A stretch of 64,000 nucleotides of DNA from Candidatus Obscuribacterales bacterium (lineage in GTDB: Bacteria; Cyanobacteriota; Vampirovibrionia; Obscuribacterales; Obscuribacteraceae): positions 1,184,001 through 1,248,000 of the forward strand of contig CBDDIJ010000002.1 of NCBI GenBank assembly GCA_965228855.1, in the 5' to 3' direction. Positions within the stretch are counted from its first letter, which is position 1. Every line of letters starts with the position of its first letter. Position numbers and translations under genes: made by a program. A model generated the notes under the pieces. That model ran no database searches. It was not told the origin of the DNA and saw only the letters and a list, made by a program, of their open reading frames with translations. Positions 50,935 to 64,000 of the stretch are shown in pieces.

Positions 50935-52514
50935 GTTCTATGCGTAACCCTCGTTTTACTCGCTTCGGATTGAAGAACCGACTTCTGATCGCGTCACTGT
51001 TTTTCTTTACACAAGGCGGATTCTCTGCGGCTCTTGCCGATGAACTGGCCTGGCAAACTTATAACGACGCCGGAGAATCTTTTGTAAAACAGCAAAAGTT
51101 CTCGGAAGCAGAGGAGATACTCGCATTGGCTGTCAGTGCGGCTCGCGATATGAATTCGAACGAGAGATTGCGCACCAGTTTAACTCTCCTTGTGCAGGTT
51201 TTTGAAAAACTAAATCAGGCTGAGAAGGCTGAAGCTGTGCGCAAGGAATTGCAAGCTCTCGGTGGTCCTGTGCCGGTTGCAGTTGCCCCATCTTCGTCCG
51301 AGAGCACCGGCTCACCTGTTGCAGTTTACCCCCCATCTTCAGAAATTTCTACCGAACCCGTTTCGGAAACTCCCGAGTCTGTGTCTGATGCCTCGTTGCC
51401 TGCGTCCGCGACTGAAACGTCTACAAAGTCGAAATCACCTGACAGCAGCATGCAGGAGGTAAAAACTGAAGACGGGGATGTCGATAAGTTGATTCAACAA
51501 CTGTCGAGTGAACGTGAGGGCTTGCGACAGTCAGATGGTGCTGGCGCCTCGAATTCAACGTCAGGCTCACGATCTGACCGGATAGCTTCGACACTACCGC
51601 CGGTGGCAGCATCGGGAACTACAATTTCTGCAACAGAAGTGAAACAGTTGACGGGACCTTTTGATTTTTCAATTTCAATCTGTTTTGCTCCGAATTCCAA
51701 TTATGCAGCGTCGAGTGGCGGCGACCAGATCGCGCGGTACTGGGACATTTCTTCCGGTAAGGAAATTTCGCAGTGCGCCGGTCACAAGGGAAACGTAAAT
51801 TCGGTTTCGTTTTCCAGGGATGGTCTGAGAATAGTTACCGGAGGCGATGACCAGACTGTTCGCATATTCGCTGCCGGTAGCGGTCAGCAAGAGAAGCTAA
51901 TGGAGGGGCACAAGAATACTGTTCTATGCGCTGCCTTCTCGCAGGACATGAGGCGCGTTGCCTCCGGTTCCTTTGATGGCGCGATTATTATTTGGGATGC
52001 GGAAACCGGCTCCAGGGTAGGAACTCTGGAAGGGCACACCCGACCGGTGAGAAGCGTTATGTTCTCACCATCCGGTGATAAGCTGGTCTCCGCGAGCGAC
52101 GACCATACATTAATCATTTGGGATGCGAACTCGTTGAAGCCTTTGAATACGCTGAAGGGGCACACTGACTATGTCCTCAGTCTAGATATCTCGCCGGATG
52201 GTAATCGAATAATCAGCGGTGGCCGCGATCTCAAGGTTCGCTTGTGGGATATGAACAACGGCAGCGAACTGCAGGTCATGGAAGGTCATAAAAATTGGGT
52301 TCAGCGAGTGCGTTTTATGAATAGTGGTAACCAGGCCATGACCGGAAGTCTGGACAAAACTGTGCGAATCTGGGATGTTTCATCCGGTGCATTGCAAACC
52401 ACCGTTGAAGGTTTTGAGTGGGGACTGTGGGCCGAGGACTTTGCTCCTGATTCCAGGCAAGTCTTGACGGGAAGCAATGATAAAACCATCCGAGTTTGGT
52501 CGCTGCCAAACTAG
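50931..52514 (+). CDS. Secreted WD40-repeat protein with N-terminal TPR-like helices
   Basis: Signal peptide, TPR-like helix pair, Ser/Thr/Pro linker, seven GH...WD repeats. Confidence 0.9.
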   Translation: MSSMRNPRFTRFGLKNRLLIASLFFFTQGGFSAALADELAWQTYNDAGESFVKQQKFSEAEEILALAVSAARDMNSNERLRTSLTLLVQVFEKLNQAEKAEAVRKELQALGGPVPVAVAPSSSESTGSPVAVYPPSSEISTEPVSETPESVSDASLPASATETSTKSKSPDSSMQEVKTEDGDVDKLIQQLSSEREGLRQSDGAGASNSTSGSRSDRIASTLPPVAASGTTISATEVKQLTGPFDFSISICFAPNSNYAASSGGDQIARYWDISSGKEISQCAGHKGNVNSVSFSRDGLRIVTGGDDQTVRIFAAGSGQQEKLMEGHKNTVLCAAFSQDMRRVASGSFDGAIIIWDAETGSRVGTLEGHTRPVRSVMFSPSGDKLVSASDDHTLIIWDANSLKPLNTLKGHTDYVLSLDISPDGNRIISGGRDLKVRLWDMNNGSELQVMEGHKNWVQRVRFMNSGNQAMTGSLDKTVRIWDVSSGALQTTVEGFEWGLWAEDFAPDSRQVLTGSNDKTIRVWSLPN

Positions 52515-52527
52515 CAAGCAGGGCATC

Positions 52528-52959
52528 ATGTTTCCAACAAATTTAGAGGCGATCAATATTCTTGTAGCAGGTAAAAGTCAGGCAAACGTTGACCTGGCGA
52601 AGGCTGCTTACCAGGGAATGGACTATCAAGTAATTCCTGCGCCGGGAACGTCACTTGCTTTGTTTCTCGCGCAGAAGAATTACCCCGATTTGATCATTTG
52701 CGATGGCACACTCACTGACGGAGATGGAATCACGTTTCTAAGTGAGCTCAAGGCTGATCCGGAGTTGGCGGAGATTCCGTTTGTATTTTTAGTGGATAAA
52801 CTGCATGGCGGTTTAGATGAAAACCTTGCCATCACATCCGGTGCCGTCAATGTTTTCTATCATCCTATAGAAGCTGCCTGGCTGAAGGAATGCACGGTGC
52901 CGATCATTACCCACCGTTCTCAAACCAAAGAAAAGCGAGCTGAACAAACGCCTGAGTAG
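52528..52959 (+). CDS. Atypical single-domain response regulator receiver
   Basis: PDLIICD, DGDG, IPFVFL, GA fold motifs, but acidic pocket, Thr/Ser and Lys are replaced. Start moved to ATG 52528. Confidence 0.7.
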   Translation: MFPTNLEAINILVAGKSQANVDLAKAAYQGMDYQVIPAPGTSLALFLAQKNYPDLIICDGTLTDGDGITFLSELKADPELAEIPFVFLVDKLHGGLDENLAITSGAVNVFYHPIEAAWLKECTVPIITHRSQTKEKRAEQTPE

Positions 52960-53095: not shown

Positions 53096-54721
53096 CTATT
53101 TTTGTTGTTCCGGTTTCACGTACATCGTATACAGCTCATTGGCTTTAGCTGCTTGGCGCAAGCTTTCCATTGATATGGTGCTGTTTGCTACTTCTCGTGT
53201 GTTGCGAATTGTGCCGCGAGGACCGTAGTTGTCTTGTACGGTGTAGGTTCCTCTCAGGCGTCTGACATCCTGGCTGTCCCAGTTGTTGATCAGGTCTTGA
53301 ATATAAGCTCTGTTTTGCGGTGTGAATTGACCGCTGCCGACGTCTCCGTTGCGCGAACGCCAGTCGTATTCTTCAACGTAGCGTTTCAGATCCTTCTTGC
53401 TGACTTCACCGTCGATATCACCCTTGATACCATCGAGTACATTGAAAAGTGAGTCGTTGGGATGGCCGCTTCCGGTTTCGAACATCGGCGCCATGATGTC
53501 TCTCGAGTGAGCGGTGGCGAGGTCCTGGGTGTAGCGAGCCTGCCGTCCGGCTTCGTTGGTCTCGAATGTCGATTGCGCGTTGCGAACATTTCTGTCCAGA
53601 TCTTTTTGATTTACGACTTTTCCGTTTCCTGACAGAGTATCGAATTCATCTTGAATCTGGTGCAGTTTATGGAAACTGTCTTTGTTTCTGGTTGTGCGGA
53701 TACCGAGGTCGGTTTCACCGCGATTGACCGCATCATCGCCGGTGATGTCATAGCGTTTGAGGTTGTTGCGCCCCCAACCGCTCAAGTCGGCTGCCGATGC
53801 GATTCTTTCAGCTTCAGCGTCGCGAGCCATTTTGTCTTCGAGGCGAGGATCGGATACCGCTTTACTGAAGTGTTTCGGAGGTGTAACTTCGAGAACCATC
53901 TCGGAACGTACTGTCGGAGCTTCTTTGCGTGGTGCCAGTTTTGCGTCTACAAAGCGACCGAACAGTTGTTCTTGTCCGACACCGCCGGCTTGAGCGAGAC
54001 TCTCCATGCTCAGTGTGCTGTTGGTGACTTCACGATCGTCGGACGTAGTCCAGTGTCCACGGAGGTTCTTAACTTCAGGACTGTTCCAGTTATCCAGTAA
54101 GTTCTGAACGACTTGACGCGATTTTTCGTTGAACTGTCCCGAATTGACATCGCCGTAGCGTGCGCGGCGGTCGTATTCATCCATATACTTTTCGAGGTCA
54201 CGCTTGCTGATTTCTCCATCCGGCTTGCGGTCTCTCATCGTATCCAGTACGCGGAATAGCGAACCGTTGGGGTTGCCGTCCGGGGTGGCAAACAGTGGTT
54301 TCATCATGCCACGAGCGTGGGCTTGTTGTTGTTCGAGCATCTCTTGCTGCCGGCGCGCCATCTCGTTTTCCTGAGCTTGCTTTACTTCGCTCTCGAAGTT
54401 TCTTTGCAGGTCTTTGACAGAGATCGCGTCCTTTCTTCCCTTGAGGTGAGGGAACTGTTCTTCCATGAGCGTGAGCATCTCACGGTCCTGTTTTGATCCG
54501 CTTGTGCGCAGTCCGAGGTCGATCTCTCCGAGATTGACGCGGTCGTCTCCTGAAACATCGAAGCGGTTGAGATTGTTTGTGCCCCAGTTAAGCAACTTGC
54601 CTGCCTGGTCAACTCTGGCGTCGTCTTGAAGTCTAGCTAGTGTGCGCGGATCGGAATTTTGGGCATCAGGTTTGCCGGCGTCGGGTTTAACCCGGACGTC
54701 AAAGTCTTCATATCCAGACAT
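53096..54721 (-). CDS. Internally duplicated protein with EF-hand-like loops
   Basis: Two ~260-aa repeats (WGTNNLNRFDVSGDDRVNLGEIDLGLRT / WGRNNLKRYDITGDDAVNRGETDLGIRT; DGEISKRDL / DGEVSKKDL); AGGAG RBS. Confidence 0.75.
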   Translation of the reverse strand: MSGYEDFDVRVKPDAGKPDAQNSDPRTLARLQDDARVDQAGKLLNWGTNNLNRFDVSGDDRVNLGEIDLGLRTSGSKQDREMLTLMEEQFPHLKGRKDAISVKDLQRNFESEVKQAQENEMARRQQEMLEQQQAHARGMMKPLFATPDGNPNGSLFRVLDTMRDRKPDGEISKRDLEKYMDEYDRRARYGDVNSGQFNEKSRQVVQNLLDNWNSPEVKNLRGHWTTSDDREVTNSTLSMESLAQAGGVGQEQLFGRFVDAKLAPRKEAPTVRSEMVLEVTPPKHFSKAVSDPRLEDKMARDAEAERIASAADLSGWGRNNLKRYDITGDDAVNRGETDLGIRTTRNKDSFHKLHQIQDEFDTLSGNGKVVNQKDLDRNVRNAQSTFETNEAGRQARYTQDLATAHSRDIMAPMFETGSGHPNDSLFNVLDGIKGDIDGEVSKKDLKRYVEEYDWRSRNGDVGSGQFTPQNRAYIQDLINNWDSQDVRRLRGTYTVQDNYGPRGTIRNTREVANSTISMESLRQAAKANELYTMYVKPEQQK

Positions 54722-58941: not shown

Positions 58942-58973
58942 AAGAAAGCGCGCTCGCATGGGCGCGCTTTCTT
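58942..58973. terminator. Bidirectional Rho-independent terminator
   Basis: AAGAAAGCGCGC...GCGCGCTTTCTT 12-bp stem between the convergent YceI and kinase genes. Confidence 0.85.
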
Positions 58974-58990: not shown

Positions 58991-61195
58991 TTACGCGGGT
59001 AACGTGATTGCAAAACCGTCTCTGCCGTCTCTTGATTCAATCCGGAGAGTCCCACGATGACCTTCAACTGTTGCTCTTGCCAGTGCAAGACTCAACCCAC
59101 TGACCGTCCATGTGTCGTGCTGAGCAAGGTCGACGATTGCGTATCTCTTCAAGCATGTCTCTCTTGTCTGCTCGGGGATGATGCATCCGGGTGTGGTAAT
59201 GAAAAGGGAAACACGTCCGGGAGTGCGTTCCACATTGACCAAAACATCACTCGAATGATCGCTGAAGCGGAGTATTGCCAGCGCGAAGCTGACTATGGCA
59301 AGAACCAGTCTCTCGACATCGGCTCGAAATGGCATATGCGCACCCGGTGTATCGCAAGTGATGGTGCGGTTTTTATCGGGGCACATCTCGTTCAAACTAT
59401 CATTCGCTAGTGAGACCAGTTTCAACGCGGTCGTTTCTTGCGTTTCGAATGCGAATGCGCCCGACTCAATTTTTTCCAGGTCAAGGAAGTCGTTGATAAG
59501 GCAAACGAGCTTGCCTACTTTGTTTTCAGCTTGGACAAGCGTTTCGAATTCAACCTGCTCCTCGGCAGTTTTAGACTTTTCTTTCCGGTCCTCCATCTGC
59601 GCTGCCATCATGCCGAGAGTGCCATGAAGTGATGTTAGTGGAGAACGCAAATCGTGGCTGATCATGGAGATGAAGTCACGTTTTACGTTTTCAATCTCGC
59701 GCCTCGTCGTGATGTCTTGGAGAACGGCAAGAAAATATTCTTTGTCATGATTGGAGTATCGGTTTGCCATAAAAGACACCGCCAGCGGTGACTTGTCTTT
59801 TCGATATGACTGCAGCTCAAGTGGATGTGTTGCCGCCGCTTTGACGATGGCAGCGTCATCTGCGCCTCCTGTGGAGCTGCCGGTAAACAGGATGCTAAAC
59901 TCTCGACCGAGCAATTCATTGGCATGATACTGAAACATTTTTGTTGTAGTCGGATTTGCGGAGGTGATCTGAAATGCGTTGTTTAGCGATAGCACTGAAA
60001 GCGGCAAGCTATCAATTATTTTTCTGAATCTCTCTTCGCTTTCGCGCATCAACCGCCGAACCCGATTTCTTTCAGTAATGTCGTGCGCGATCAAGACTGC
60101 CGAGCTGTGATCTTCTCCCGGCTGGGCTGACCATAACAAGTCCAGATGCTCGCCATCTTTTTTGCGAATTGTGTTTTCAAAGGAAACCGATTGCCCCTGA
60201 TAGAAAAGCAGGTCGATTGCTTCCAGCGTTCGCTCAGTACTTTCCGTTTGAGTGAGTGAGCTAAGACGTCTTCCAATCAGGTCATCAGGACTGTATCCCC
60301 AGAGTCCACTGCTTGTCTGATTCACCTCTATAAAGACACCTTTGTCGTTCAAAGAACAGATGAACTCGGCTGCGTTTTCCAGAATCGTTCGTTCCTTACT
60401 TTTATAGTCGTCCAGAATGTGTCCGAGATCGCGAATGGCGTTGTCGAGCTGGGCAATTTCGTCATCGCCGGTGATTGGCGCAGCAAGCGGTTTTCCCATT
60501 GCAAGATTGACGGTATTGTCGGCGACGATTTTGAGACGCTTAGTCACTTGCACGAATACGTATCGGAAAAGCAAGAGTGCAATTCCTAGATTGATCGATA
60601 CGCCAATCGCCAGGGTGAACACAATCATTCCAACTGATTGGGTCTTGAGTTCATCACTGGCGGCCTGTTCAGTCCGTGAGAATTTGACTAGAAGTTTTTC
60701 AAGTCGTTCTGTAGTTGAATTCGACGCTTCTTGAAGTTTATACAGCAGGAAATAATGTTCACGAGACTCGGTGAGTTTGTTCCTCAGCTTTTGCATGAGG
60801 TCAACTCCCTCTTGATAGTTGTCGAGGAGATCTTCAAAGTCTTTTTTAACTTCGGGGTAGTCTCGAAAGTCACGTTTCAACTGCGTGAATTCCCTCGGAT
60901 AGCCGGCCGCGATATCCGTAAAACCCTGTGTGTATTTCTGCGGACTTCGTTGATGCGAGTGGGTCGTCACATTTTCCAGAACTTCAAGTGTCATGCTCTG
61001 GGTAAGATTCGACAATCGACTGAGTCTTCCGACGATGTTTTTAGCGCGCTTGACCTTTTCCATCTGCGAGAATGTGTCGTTGATCATCAAGCCGAGATAG
61101 CCTGCGAAAGCCGTTTGCAGCAGTGCGATTGTGCCGCAGAGAATCAGCATTCTTCTGCTGAGATTCGAAGTGGGTTTTCGCTCCGCGATGCTCAT
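58991..61195 (-). CDS. Membrane PAS sensor kinase-like protein with intact H-box and degenerate ATPase domain
   Basis: 2 TM, periplasmic helical sensor, HAMP, 2 PAS, SHDLRSPL; N, G1, F and G2 boxes read SFALAILRF, TPGCII, CLKRY, VSGLSL. Confidence 0.85.
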   Translation of the reverse strand: MSIAERKPTSNLSRRMLILCGTIALLQTAFAGYLGLMINDTFSQMEKVKRAKNIVGRLSRLSNLTQSMTLEVLENVTTHSHQRSPQKYTQGFTDIAAGYPREFTQLKRDFRDYPEVKKDFEDLLDNYQEGVDLMQKLRNKLTESREHYFLLYKLQEASNSTTERLEKLLVKFSRTEQAASDELKTQSVGMIVFTLAIGVSINLGIALLLFRYVFVQVTKRLKIVADNTVNLAMGKPLAAPITGDDEIAQLDNAIRDLGHILDDYKSKERTILENAAEFICSLNDKGVFIEVNQTSSGLWGYSPDDLIGRRLSSLTQTESTERTLEAIDLLFYQGQSVSFENTIRKKDGEHLDLLWSAQPGEDHSSAVLIAHDITERNRVRRLMRESEERFRKIIDSLPLSVLSLNNAFQITSANPTTTKMFQYHANELLGREFSILFTGSSTGGADDAAIVKAAATHPLELQSYRKDKSPLAVSFMANRYSNHDKEYFLAVLQDITTRREIENVKRDFISMISHDLRSPLTSLHGTLGMMAAQMEDRKEKSKTAEEQVEFETLVQAENKVGKLVCLINDFLDLEKIESGAFAFETQETTALKLVSLANDSLNEMCPDKNRTITCDTPGAHMPFRADVERLVLAIVSFALAILRFSDHSSDVLVNVERTPGRVSLFITTPGCIIPEQTRETCLKRYAIVDLAQHDTWTVSGLSLALARATVEGHRGTLRIESRDGRDGFAITLPA

Positions 61196-63378
61196 TTGGG
61201 ATTCTCATTCGACGGTTTATGCAGGGGAACTGTAAACCAGAAGCGGCTGCCGGAGCCCTCTTCGCTCTCCACTCCGATTGAGCCTCCATGCGCTTCAACA
61301 ATCGATTTGCAAATTGATAAACCTAAGCCGGTGCCTTTGCCACGCCGCCCATCGGCGGCTGACGTCTGAATGTATTGTTCAAAGATCGAGGCGCGCATAC
61401 TCTCCGGAATGCCTCTTCCTTTATCAATGATGCTGAATTCGACATGCTCCGCATACTCTTTGACCTTGAGCGAAACAGTTGAGTATCGGGGAGAAAATTT
61501 GATTGCGTTGCCGGTCAAGTTTACAATCACCTGCACGAGCCGTTCCTGGTCACCAAATATGGTGCTTGTCGATTCTTCGTGCTCCAGGGAGATTCCCTGT
61601 TGTTCGGCGTGGTCACTGATAGCTTCGACGGCGCCTCTCATCACGTCGTGAACTAGCACCGGTTTTAACGAACCTACCAGTCGACCTGCACCCAGCTTCT
61701 GGATGCTTAGTAGTTCATCGATCAGTCTCAACAAGCGTTCGATATTAGTGCAAACCCGAGCGAGTCTATCCAGCTTTTTCGATTCGAGGTTGTTTCTCTG
61801 CAGGAGAGCAGAGACTCTCATCCGAGTGTCGTTGAGCGGTTCGCGCAAGTTGCGACCGAGGATGTTGACGAAATCCGCTTTCATCGTTTCCAGCTTCACT
61901 CGTTCGCTTACATCGTCCAGAACAAGTAGGCGATCGCTGCTCTCCTGTTCTTCCAGGTTCGCGGAGGTTATTTCAACAGGTAGATTGTGACCGTCAGGTA
62001 GTTTCAACGAGCAGCGAGTTGTCAGTTTGGTCGGCTTTGATTCAAGAGCTTGTAGAAGATCTTCGCCAACACCGTCTTCGGCTTCCAGCACCGATAGCAC
62101 CGGTCTGAGGGTCAAGTCCTGACGATTTCGCCCAGTCATCCTTTCAGCTGTGGCATTGACCGATTGAATGAAACCATCTCGATTTATCGCGATCAATCCA
62201 ACCGGAATGTTTTCGGTAGCGTTGCGAACCTGCTCTTCCTGTGCGGCTAGCAGAGCCTCCATATTTTTCAGCTCAGTCATGTTGTGAACGAAGCAGAACA
62301 GCGACTCGGCCGTTGTCGACCAATAGACGGACCAGGTTGTATCTATGTGTTCCTCAGTGCCGGTTAAAACGAACGCTTCGAAATTTGATCGCTTACCGGA
62401 AGACATCAGTTGTTTAACTTCTGCAGATACTCTTTCTGCGTCTTCAGAGCGCAAGATTGAGCTGAAGTGTTTTCCGATCAGATAATCAGGTTCGTAATGC
62501 CATTGCGATCTGACAGAGGGGCTCAGCGATGTGAACATTCCATCCGAGTCGAGTTGGCAGATCACTTCCGAAGCATTTTCAACCAAAGCTGCTTCGTTAC
62601 GCCGTGCTGATTGAATTGCAGTTGTCATTTCGTGGAAAAGAGAGTCGATCATACCGATTTCATCGGTGTATGGAATGCGCTCATTCAGAGGTTCTTCTCT
62701 GGAAAATCGGTCGACATTGTCTGAGAGCGTCGCTACTCTCCCGGTGATTCTTTTGACTAAAACCATCGCGACGAAAACAGCACCAAAGAGATTTACGAGG
62801 GCAGCTGTGATGAGAACTACCTGTGCGTCGCTGAGTGCTTTCACTGTATCGGAGGGTTTTGATTGTTCGGTATTGCGGTATCGCTTGATCAATTCTTGAG
62901 ATAGTCGCGTGACGTTTGACGACAAACGGAACATAGTTTTATTGAACGTCTCAAACCCTTCCGGCGATTGACGGAATGTGGACTGCTGAGAATCGTAGTA
63001 ATTACAAGTTGCCGAAGCCGCGCGTTCTAACTCGTCAAGTTTGCGCTGTGATTCGGGATCGTTTTGCACCAGATCTTTAAGGCGAGTGATTTCGCGGTTT
63101 AGCTGACCCAGAAATCCGTGATAATCGGTTGAACTTTCGACGAATTGAAGTAATTCCGGTGGCGACGCGGAGCGAATCATAGCGATGCCTATCTTCTGCG
63201 AGATGTTGGCGAGATTATTGAGACCGACGGCTACTTCGCGGTCGTGTTGCTCCTGATCGAGTAGGTCTTTGGTTTTAAAAAGCAATCCTGCAAGCGTTCC
63301 AATGAACAAAAACTCGACGGCGAGTAACAGGCAAATGCCTATTAAACCTTGCTTCGTAATCGTGATTCTTCTGAGCAT
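61192..63378 (-). CDS. Membrane PAS sensor kinase-like protein with intact ATPase domain but no phosphoacceptor His
   Basis: Same architecture; NLTGNAIKFS, DKGRGIP, IFEQY, GTGLGL intact; H-box reads GRNLREPL; 4-nt ATGA overlap with the downstream kinase. Confidence 0.85.
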   Translation of the reverse strand: MLRRITITKQGLIGICLLLAVEFLFIGTLAGLLFKTKDLLDQEQHDREVAVGLNNLANISQKIGIAMIRSASPPELLQFVESSTDYHGFLGQLNREITRLKDLVQNDPESQRKLDELERAASATCNYYDSQQSTFRQSPEGFETFNKTMFRLSSNVTRLSQELIKRYRNTEQSKPSDTVKALSDAQVVLITAALVNLFGAVFVAMVLVKRITGRVATLSDNVDRFSREEPLNERIPYTDEIGMIDSLFHEMTTAIQSARRNEAALVENASEVICQLDSDGMFTSLSPSVRSQWHYEPDYLIGKHFSSILRSEDAERVSAEVKQLMSSGKRSNFEAFVLTGTEEHIDTTWSVYWSTTAESLFCFVHNMTELKNMEALLAAQEEQVRNATENIPVGLIAINRDGFIQSVNATAERMTGRNRQDLTLRPVLSVLEAEDGVGEDLLQALESKPTKLTTRCSLKLPDGHNLPVEITSANLEEQESSDRLLVLDDVSERVKLETMKADFVNILGRNLREPLNDTRMRVSALLQRNNLESKKLDRLARVCTNIERLLRLIDELLSIQKLGAGRLVGSLKPVLVHDVMRGAVEAISDHAEQQGISLEHEESTSTIFGDQERLVQVIVNLTGNAIKFSPRYSTVSLKVKEYAEHVEFSIIDKGRGIPESMRASIFEQYIQTSAADGRRGKGTGLGLSICKSIVEAHGGSIGVESEEGSGSRFWFTVPLHKPSNENPK

Positions 63379-63577: not shown

Positions 63578-64000
63578 ATGGTGAAGAGCATGGGCATGAC
63601 AACAGGTTTAGACGTTCCGACTCCGATGGGCGGAGAAGATGGAGATAAGCAAAATCCCTGGGTGAATGAGGTTTTCTCTGCGCCGAAACCGGAACCGAAG
63701 CAAGCTGAACAGGCATCTACCCAAGCTGCAGGGGAAACTGCTGACGGCAAGAAAAACTTGTCGGGTCAACCCGAGGCACAGGAGCCTGTAGACGTTTCGA
63801 GAGCCGGTGCCGACGCGCCTGTTTCAAAGAATGAGAACGCGACAGCCGTCGAGGAACGGGCGGATAAAAGTGCGCAGTATGTCTCGCCGGATATGGGTCC
63901 TAAAGTTGATGGTCTGATTTCCGTCGAGCAGAATACTGTCAGAAAAGATGTTCTCGAAAAACTAAAAGGAGAAAAATCGAACGCAGCGAGAATCGAGCTT
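63578..64000 (+). CDS. 5' part of a hypothetical protein (runs off the window)
   Basis: Own translation MVKSMGMTTGLDVPTPMGGEDGDKQNPWVNEVFS... is open for 141 codons to the window end; absent from the ORF track because it has no stop here. Confidence 0.6.
   Translation, partial: MVKSMGMTTGLDVPTPMGGEDGDKQNPWVNEVFSAPKPEPKQAEQASTQAAGETADGKKNLSGQPEAQEPVDVSRAGADAPVSKNENATAVEERADKSAQYVSPDMGPKVDGLISVEQNTVRKDVLEKLKGEKSNAARIEL

Follow-up and report, generated by a model that had tools for sequence, protein, structure and literature searches.

Two adjacent, reciprocally incomplete sensor kinases of an Obscuribacterales bacterium as probable halves of one heterodimeric receptor

Can two neighbouring sensor kinase genes, each lacking what the other retains, act together as one enzyme? 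The question is raised by genes A and B of Candidatus Obscuribacterales bacterium, which lie within the 64,000-nucleotide stretch of DNA analyzed here (the window; GCA_965228855.1, contig CBDDIJ010000002.1, positions 1,184,001 to 1,248,000). Protein A has lost the phospho-accepting His of its dimerization and histidine phosphotransfer domain (DHp) and keeps an intact catalytic and ATP-binding domain (CA); protein B keeps the His and carries an ATPase-dead CA. We consider it probable that A and B are complementary halves of one membrane sensor kinase, an obligate heterodimer in which A phosphorylates B in trans. The idea of complementary halves is well supported by comparative sequence evidence, namely the reciprocal losses, eight such pairs in one genome, gene fusions, purifying selection and a helix-2 signature. 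The features on which the argument rests are as follows.

61192..63378, minus strand: gene A, 728 amino acids (aa); transmembrane (TM) helix, four-helix periplasmic sensor, TM helix, HAMP-like segment, PAS, PAS, His-less DHp, intact CA
61852..61854, minus strand: CGC, Arg509 at the phospho-His position of A (GRNLREPL), followed by Asn510 and not by an acidic general base
61735..61737, minus strand: Arg548 of A in DHp helix 2 (H+41 of intact family members), invariant in alignment A2
61219..61554, minus strand: intact CA of A, with Asn620 and Asn624 (N box), DKGRG (G1), Phe666 and GTGLGL (G2)
61192..61195, minus strand: ATGA stop/start overlap of genes A and B
58991..61195, minus strand: gene B, 734 aa; architecture as gene A, with an intact H-box and an ATPase-dead CA
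59654..59656, minus strand: CAC, His514 of B in MISHDLRSPLT; His, acidic +1 (Asp515) and Arg +3 all present
58997..59320, minus strand: dead but folded CA of B, without the N-box Asn, G1 Asp, F-box Phe and G2 glycines
about 59069-59158, minus strand: rebuilt lid segment in the dead CA of B, near-invariant among 11 orthologues and above its surroundings in conservation

When the sequence was re-read, both frames were open and full length, and the overlap and the Arg and His codons stood where an earlier sequence-only reading of this DNA had placed them. Its account of the motifs also held: the CA of A is complete (NLTGNAIKF, DKGRGIP, IFEQY, GTGLGL) and the corresponding boxes of B have decayed (SFALAILRF, TPGCII, CLKRY, VSGLSL). 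By the canonical HisKA criteria, the His with an acidic next residue is found in B (His514-Asp515) and not in A (Arg509-Asn510), and the N, G1, F and G2 boxes are found in A and not in B. With Pfam, A scored 103 bits for HATPase_c (cut-off 26.4) and 22.7 bits for HisKA, below the 26.9 cut-off, and B scored 44.3 bits for HisKA and 26.9 bits for HATPase_c, at the cut-off. Two PAS domains were called in each protein; the HAMP segments were read off the sequence without a Pfam call, which Pfam did make in a paralogous pair. Two TM helices per protein were placed by hydropathy (A, 12-30 and 187-205; B, 16-34 and 191-209), and a third hydrophobic window of B (627-645) is the decayed N-box helix. Both periplasmic sensor domains are helical, and that of A resembled CHASE3/4HB_MCP/TarH clusters (0.92-0.94) in an Atlas feature search that serves as a lead only.

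The best NCBIfam matches of the pair were PnpS, WalK and PhoR, each below its own cut-off, and Foldseek searches with AlphaFold2 models returned ordinary kinases, including WalK, VicK and HK853. By fold and profile, A and B descend from kinases of the HisKA/WalK-PhoR type. The ATGA overlap, a -4 arrangement that recurs at most paralogous and orthologous pairs, suggests translational coupling. A is the predicted phosphoryl donor subunit, and B the predicted phospho-acceptor and regulator-docking subunit. In the AlphaFold2 model the dead CA of B preserved its sheet, and lid residues 686-697 had a predicted local distance difference test score (pLDDT) below 50. The near-invariance of this lid (59069-59158) hints at a new binding role.

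Such a pattern might also be produced by neutral decay after duplication or by an assembly error. The latter does not explain it, because the contig of run X3 matched the whole stretch with 0 differences (X3 may be the source of the window DNA) and the pieces of run X4, which span both key codons, also showed 0 differences; identical sequence in independent contigs speaks against decay and error alike. The sequence-only reading had named intact orthologues as the sign of strain-specific decay or assembly error; the orthologues gave no such sign. Among 13 A orthologues (57-96% identity), Arg occupied the phospho position in 12 and His in one (P0028), an acidic +1 residue was found in 0/13, and the N and G2 boxes were present in all 13. 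All 11 B orthologues carried MISHDLRSPLT, and all 11 had lost the ATP motifs (Asn, Asp, Phe, Gly). When compared with L086, the ratio of nonsynonymous to synonymous substitution rates (dN/dS) was 0.00-0.26 over all 12 domains, with 0.00 for the DHp of A and 0.05 for the dead CA of B. When compared with L087-L089, the DHp and CA were 63-78% identical while synonymous sites were near saturation. A stop codon in one B orthologue (L089) is what decay has in its favour. The reciprocal state is common to more than 50 pairs. The reciprocal losses are, on this comparative record, maintained and not a product of decay, because the orthologues hold the pattern and dN/dS does not exceed 0.26. Low dN/dS, orthologue conservation and the pair surveys described below refute decay and assembly error, to which we leave almost no probability.

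Searched with a profile, the window's genome yielded 108 matches to the kinase core, among which we found eight adjacent pairs of a His-less, ATPase-intact and a His-bearing, ATPase-dead kinase (six with the A-type gene first, two with the B-type gene first). All eight ATPase-dead His-bearing kinases of the genome adjoin a His-less ATPase-intact partner. Conversely, 8/9 His-less ATPase-intact kinases are paired; the ninth is a cytosolic kinase of another subfamily. Partners are alike in architecture, with two PAS domains in four pairs, one in two pairs and none in two pairs. Shuffling the labels over 42 family genes never reached eight such pairs (0/200,000), a figure that is overstated since four pairs share an ancestor. 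Three unpaired pseudokinases were also seen in this genome: one with His replaced by Gln and an intact CA (G000:C5:110976-112541), one His-less with a dead CA (C2:1273485-1275920), and a DHp-like helix that lacks the His, is joined to a receiver and has no CA (C3:378835-379503).

The search of related genomes that the sequence-only reading had proposed yielded both adjacent and fused reciprocal pairs among 107 genomes of the order, surveyed with B-type queries. In the double-PAS class, 18 ATPase-dead loci were found in 8 genomes of 4 genera; the partner was visible at 17, and 16 of these 17 partners were His-less. The partner was His-less at 14/14 loci of the no-PAS class and, in the single-PAS class (23 loci; 30 of 58 matches examined), in 22/22 visible cases. 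At the other seven loci of the single-PAS search the kinase was intact, and no second kinase gene lay within 1.5 kb of it. Each of the three pair classes was found in several genera. Two more split pairs were recognized in genome G012, where 20 regions chosen from 63 HisKA matches were read. A profile search of three genomes for kinases was not counted, its best 150 of 264 matches leaving degenerate copies hidden. A class-wide search at E 1e-200 gave A-type matches in 3/151 genomes, all of the window's genus, at a threshold too strict to show absence elsewhere. The residue at the His position differs among pairs (R, Q, E, T, S, N, D, I, A or Y). Arg509 as a substitute acceptor was ruled out because this residue is not constant across pairs.

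In the fusion at L137 (964 aa, four TM helices), a sensor, a DHp with His and a dead CA are followed by a linker, a second sensor, a His-less DHp and an intact CA. Sixteen proteins of 801-1005 aa share this layout at 41-100% identity, 15 of them complete and one truncated. The layout was also found at 11 loci in 10 of the 107 genomes, a set that overlaps with the 16 proteins. AlphaFold2 modelled the fusion with a pLDDT of 72 and a predicted template modelling score of 0.53; the first half kept a CA fold that has no lid. A 998-aa frame at L201:1477-4473 (minus strand) holds two membrane kinase units one after the other, each complete and intact, and is a possible precursor of the degenerate fusions.

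Which residues each half retained was then read against a solved reaction geometry. In the CpxA Michaelis complex, DHp helix 1 supplies the His, the acidic +1 residue and Arg+3, and the CA supplies two N-box Asn, the F-box Phe and the G2 Leu (PMC3904827). For the DHp counts, identical segments and rows that could not be located were dropped, including 2/11 fused A halves. B-type segments carried the His, the acid and Arg+3 in 59/59 cases. In A-type segments, His was present in 1/53 and Arg+3 in 10/53, with the structural Leu+2 and Pro+5 throughout. An Arg in helix 2 (+41) was found in 52/52 A-type and 6/59 B-type segments, and in 47/65 intact segments; this pattern holds in all four classes counted. 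The residues retained on each side agree with the CpxA complex (PMC3904827). Along the helix, the +41 position keeps register with residues 294 and 297 of HK853, both of which the titles of Protein Data Bank entries place among rewired specificity residues. These data suggest a single composite active face to which B contributes helix 1 and A contributes helix 2 and the CA, as in a trans heterodimer.

Complementarity at the sequence level alone does not distinguish such a heterodimer from a pair of homodimers in which A2 phosphorylates B2 in a transient or dimer-of-dimers encounter, like CheA4 on CheA3, and the weak score of the A-B complex is compatible with that arrangement as well. A model of the complex, built from the PAS-DHp-CA parts together with ATP and Mg, reached a score of 0.34 where the highest of three controls had 0.00, a weak value that may reflect likeness to solved kinase dimers; contact agreement was at least 73% and partner pLDDT at least 73. 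The mark used for such models is reached by 116/157 solved and 2/215 mismatched pairs and, at scores of 0.60 or less, by 18/157 and both mismatches. Separate homodimers are nonetheless unlikely, given that (i) B lost the helix-2 face residues that A holds, as if A helix 2 flanks B helix 1; (ii) partners are equal in architecture and length in 8/8 pairs, as a shared coiled coil would require; and (iii) the four-TM head-to-tail fusions suit a one-chain pseudo-dimer.

The A-B complex may alternatively form and not be an autokinase. With a cis bundle, the His of B would be loaded by another kinase or serve in phosphatase or relay reactions; A would be a DivL-like allosteric pseudokinase with a regulatory ATP site. 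This is rather improbable in our estimate. Cis-acting VicK is among the nearest solved relatives, B-type proteins have Ser or Thr at H+4 in three classes, and the many intact paralogues in the genome are possible phosphate suppliers. Yet the catalytic residues of the CA are all present in A, among them the Asn by which the acidic base is polarised, the helix-2 Arg lies on A and not on B, and both halves are retained within one chain in the fusions. Fused B halves have Ala at H+4 in 10/11 cases, unlike a phosphatase (motif as in PMC3591291).

The heterodimer that we favour would work as follows. Translational coupling would supply equal amounts of the two chains, which would pair along a single TM-HAMP-PAS-PAS-DHp coiled coil. 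In the four-helix bundle, only one face would be catalytic, made of B helix 1 (His, Asp+1, Arg+3) and of Arg548, Asn620 and Asn624 of A, so that the CA of A would phosphorylate His514 of B in trans. Phospho-B would pass the phosphate to an OmpR-type regulator, encoded elsewhere in the case of A/B, and the dead CA of B would be retained for a structural or regulatory role. Both sensor domains would feed one catalytic site, perhaps through the AND logic that the sequence-only reading proposed, which we keep as a hypothesis and not as a conclusion, or perhaps through one ligand pocket at the mixed interface.

Several observations weigh against this heterodimer. His is back at the A position in P0028 and L088, in both without an acidic +1 residue; the L088 codon is CAC, one base from CGC, and is followed by Asn. 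In L089, B has an in-frame stop at codon 319 and A is intact. The A-type segments of two classes retain the acidic +1 residue (31/33), the B-type protein of L192 retains the N-box Asn and G1 Asp, and at L148 a His-less kinase is paired with an intact one. Sequences inside each class are kin, hence not independent. The role of the helix-2 Arg is one that we infer, and the chain that supplies the helix-2 face in HK853 is taken here as our own assumption, no paper having been found for it. Among solved structures, those closest to an intact family member are of WalK/YycG, HK853 and VicK. Their DHp loops are similarly long, which sets loop length against the helix-2 pattern when the pairs are compared with trans kinases of the CpxA and EnvZ type. 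HK853 reportedly acts in cis. VicK acts in cis (PMC3904827), and with such a kinase among the closest structures, trans geometry is not to be taken for granted. If the handedness were cis, the CA of A would face its own missing His and A-B would not autophosphorylate. The comparative pattern would be hard to explain with cis handedness. Approaches for assaying cis versus trans action in kinases have been described (PMC5956149).

How such pairs arose was analyzed with a tree of 55 rows, from which CA-dead rows and 19 distant or near-duplicate rows were excluded. A first tree, which united all dead-CA rows, was set aside on long-branch warnings. The four double-PAS pairs formed one clade (support 100/99), and the other classes branched elsewhere. 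The 15 His-less rows needed 5 changes on the tree (bootstrap 4-6) and were united in 0/200 trees; a single His-less clade was not rejected by the approximately unbiased test (p 0.235). The likely starting point would be tandem duplicates still able to dimerise with each other, which afterwards lost opposite halves. In young intact tandem pairs the helix-2 Arg is present in both genes (3/3 pairs), and in an older intact pair lineage in gene 1 only (4/4 pairs), both sets being few and chosen post hoc. In a fifth older intact pair (L168) it is present in neither gene, and the G1 box of gene 2 has decayed. L148 and the young and older intact pairs are candidate intermediates.

Old, conserved, intact-looking pairs with helix-2 asymmetry were noted at G000:C2:2414976-2418676 and C3:2881627-2885222 (L008, L009) and at L162, L163 and L168; such pairs may already be heterodimers. 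We put forward, tentatively and as one possibility, that Obscuribacterales repeatedly turned WalK/PhoR-like homodimeric kinases into receptors that have one catalytic face and are either obligate heterodimers or single-chain pseudo-dimers, with all stages preserved: young intact duplicates, helix-2-asymmetric intact pairs, half-degenerate pairs, reciprocal pairs and fusions. If true, an A subunit might also join the B subunit of a paralogous pair, which would give combinatorial two-input sensors, and each pair would have had to change bundle handedness if the ancestor acted in cis.

The statement that no characterised natural pair of this kind is known is out of date, given FasB/FasC (PMC12675982) and CheA3/CheA4 (PMC3591291). 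The closest characterised system is FasB/FasC, encoded by two adjacent membrane kinase genes, which acts with FasA in group A Streptococcus and for which genetics and two-hybrid assays support this mode of action: FasC His246 is needed, the FasC kinase domain is dispensable, the FasB kinase domain is proposed to phosphorylate FasC, and two-hybrid assays detected heterodimers and not homodimers (PMC12675982). FasB retains the DHp histidines H241 and H284, the study reportedly leaves cis phosphorylation possible, and it reports no in vitro kinase assay (PMC12675982). Like FasB/FasC, A and B are adjacent kinase genes with the His from one and the CA from the other, in the case of A/B at the sequence level only. 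The Fas sensor has six TM helices, and its operon encodes a ComE-like regulator; A and B have two TM helices each and no regulator at the locus. The A/B design further differs from it in that both losses are fixed in sequence, in its two-TM HisKA kinases of the WalK/PhoR type, in its OmpR-type partners, and in being repeated eight times per genome and also fused.

CheA3/CheA4 of Rhodobacter sphaeroides is a biochemically proven split kinase in which only the mixture autophosphorylates (PMC3591291). Both this system and Hik36/Hik43 of Synechocystis (PMC7656254) are Class II (CheA, HPt) kinases, with whole-domain loss and without sensors on both parts. In Mycobacterium tuberculosis, Rv0600c-Rv0601c-TcrA combines two kinase genes with one regulator (PMC3544749). 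In the GacS/RetS heterodimer (PMC12189002, PMC12675982), as in A/B, an incomplete kinase acts via a partner kinase; unlike in A/B, the partner is complete. In contrast to the CheA type, A and B are two full-length receptors with residue-level losses and a predicted shared DHp bundle; neither has an HPt or CheW domain, and DHp and CA folds are found in both. A and B would work like FasB/FasC and CheA3/CheA4 yet belong, by their sequence features, to neither family.

DivL is said to be a single pseudokinase with Tyr at the His position that acts through a complete partner kinase. A/B do not match this type: no one residue replaces the His in all pairs, and the kinase that A is paired with is ATPase-dead. 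Rv0600c and Rv0601c reportedly have ATP-only and His-only roles, as fragments of one kinase and not as full-length paralogous receptors. Duplicated subunits that have each given up the opposite half of a two-fold symmetric site are also known from adenylyl cyclase C1/C2, soluble guanylyl cyclase and ABC exporters with one degenerate site; the folds are unrelated to those of A/B, and the likeness is one of analogy only. In the main texts searched, mostly open-access, no description of such pairs in Obscuribacterales was found.

In the textbook view, sensor kinases are homodimers whose duplicates must cease cross-dimerising. Dozens of individually incomplete duplicates kept by selection point to heterodimer-only signalling as a design in regular use throughout a bacterial order. 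With natural one-site dimers and single-chain fusions, the two kinase halves could be set independently, which bears on half-of-sites asymmetry, on the determinants of cis versus trans action, and on the origin of heteromers from homomers. Annotation pipelines count such genes as two kinases or as dead ones.

As to the output, the genome has 149 receiver-containing open reading frames, but no receiver gene adjoins A/B, the nearest lying 6 kb away. The sequence-only reading was right that no cognate regulator is adjacent, but regulators are adjacent at 3/8 paralogous pairs, where OmpR-type regulators lie within 1 kb, at 0, 26 and 731 bases. A pair with its own regulator is found at G000:C5:787192-791749. 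Receiver matches also adjoin 5/11 fusion loci. The output of the pairs is likely an OmpR-type regulator. The nearest receiver in the window is a stand-alone receiver-like protein (52477-52959, plus strand) that scored 27.2 bits against a Pfam cut-off of 30.2 and has an atypical acidic pocket.

A promoter and terminator consensus scan gave no more matches than shuffled sequence. A G+C-rich hairpin at about 58942-58973, absent from the list of that scan, lies between gene B and a convergent YceI gene and is a possible two-way terminator. Divergent from gene A, a 2575-aa open reading frame begins in the window (63578-64000, plus strand) and runs on to L012:15306; its first 141 aa are without a Pfam match and its first 407 aa without an NCBIfam match, and its C-terminal part resembles helical repeats. 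Farther off, a 541-aa protein (53096-54721, minus strand) consists of two similar halves with EF-hand-like acidic motifs recognized by eye.

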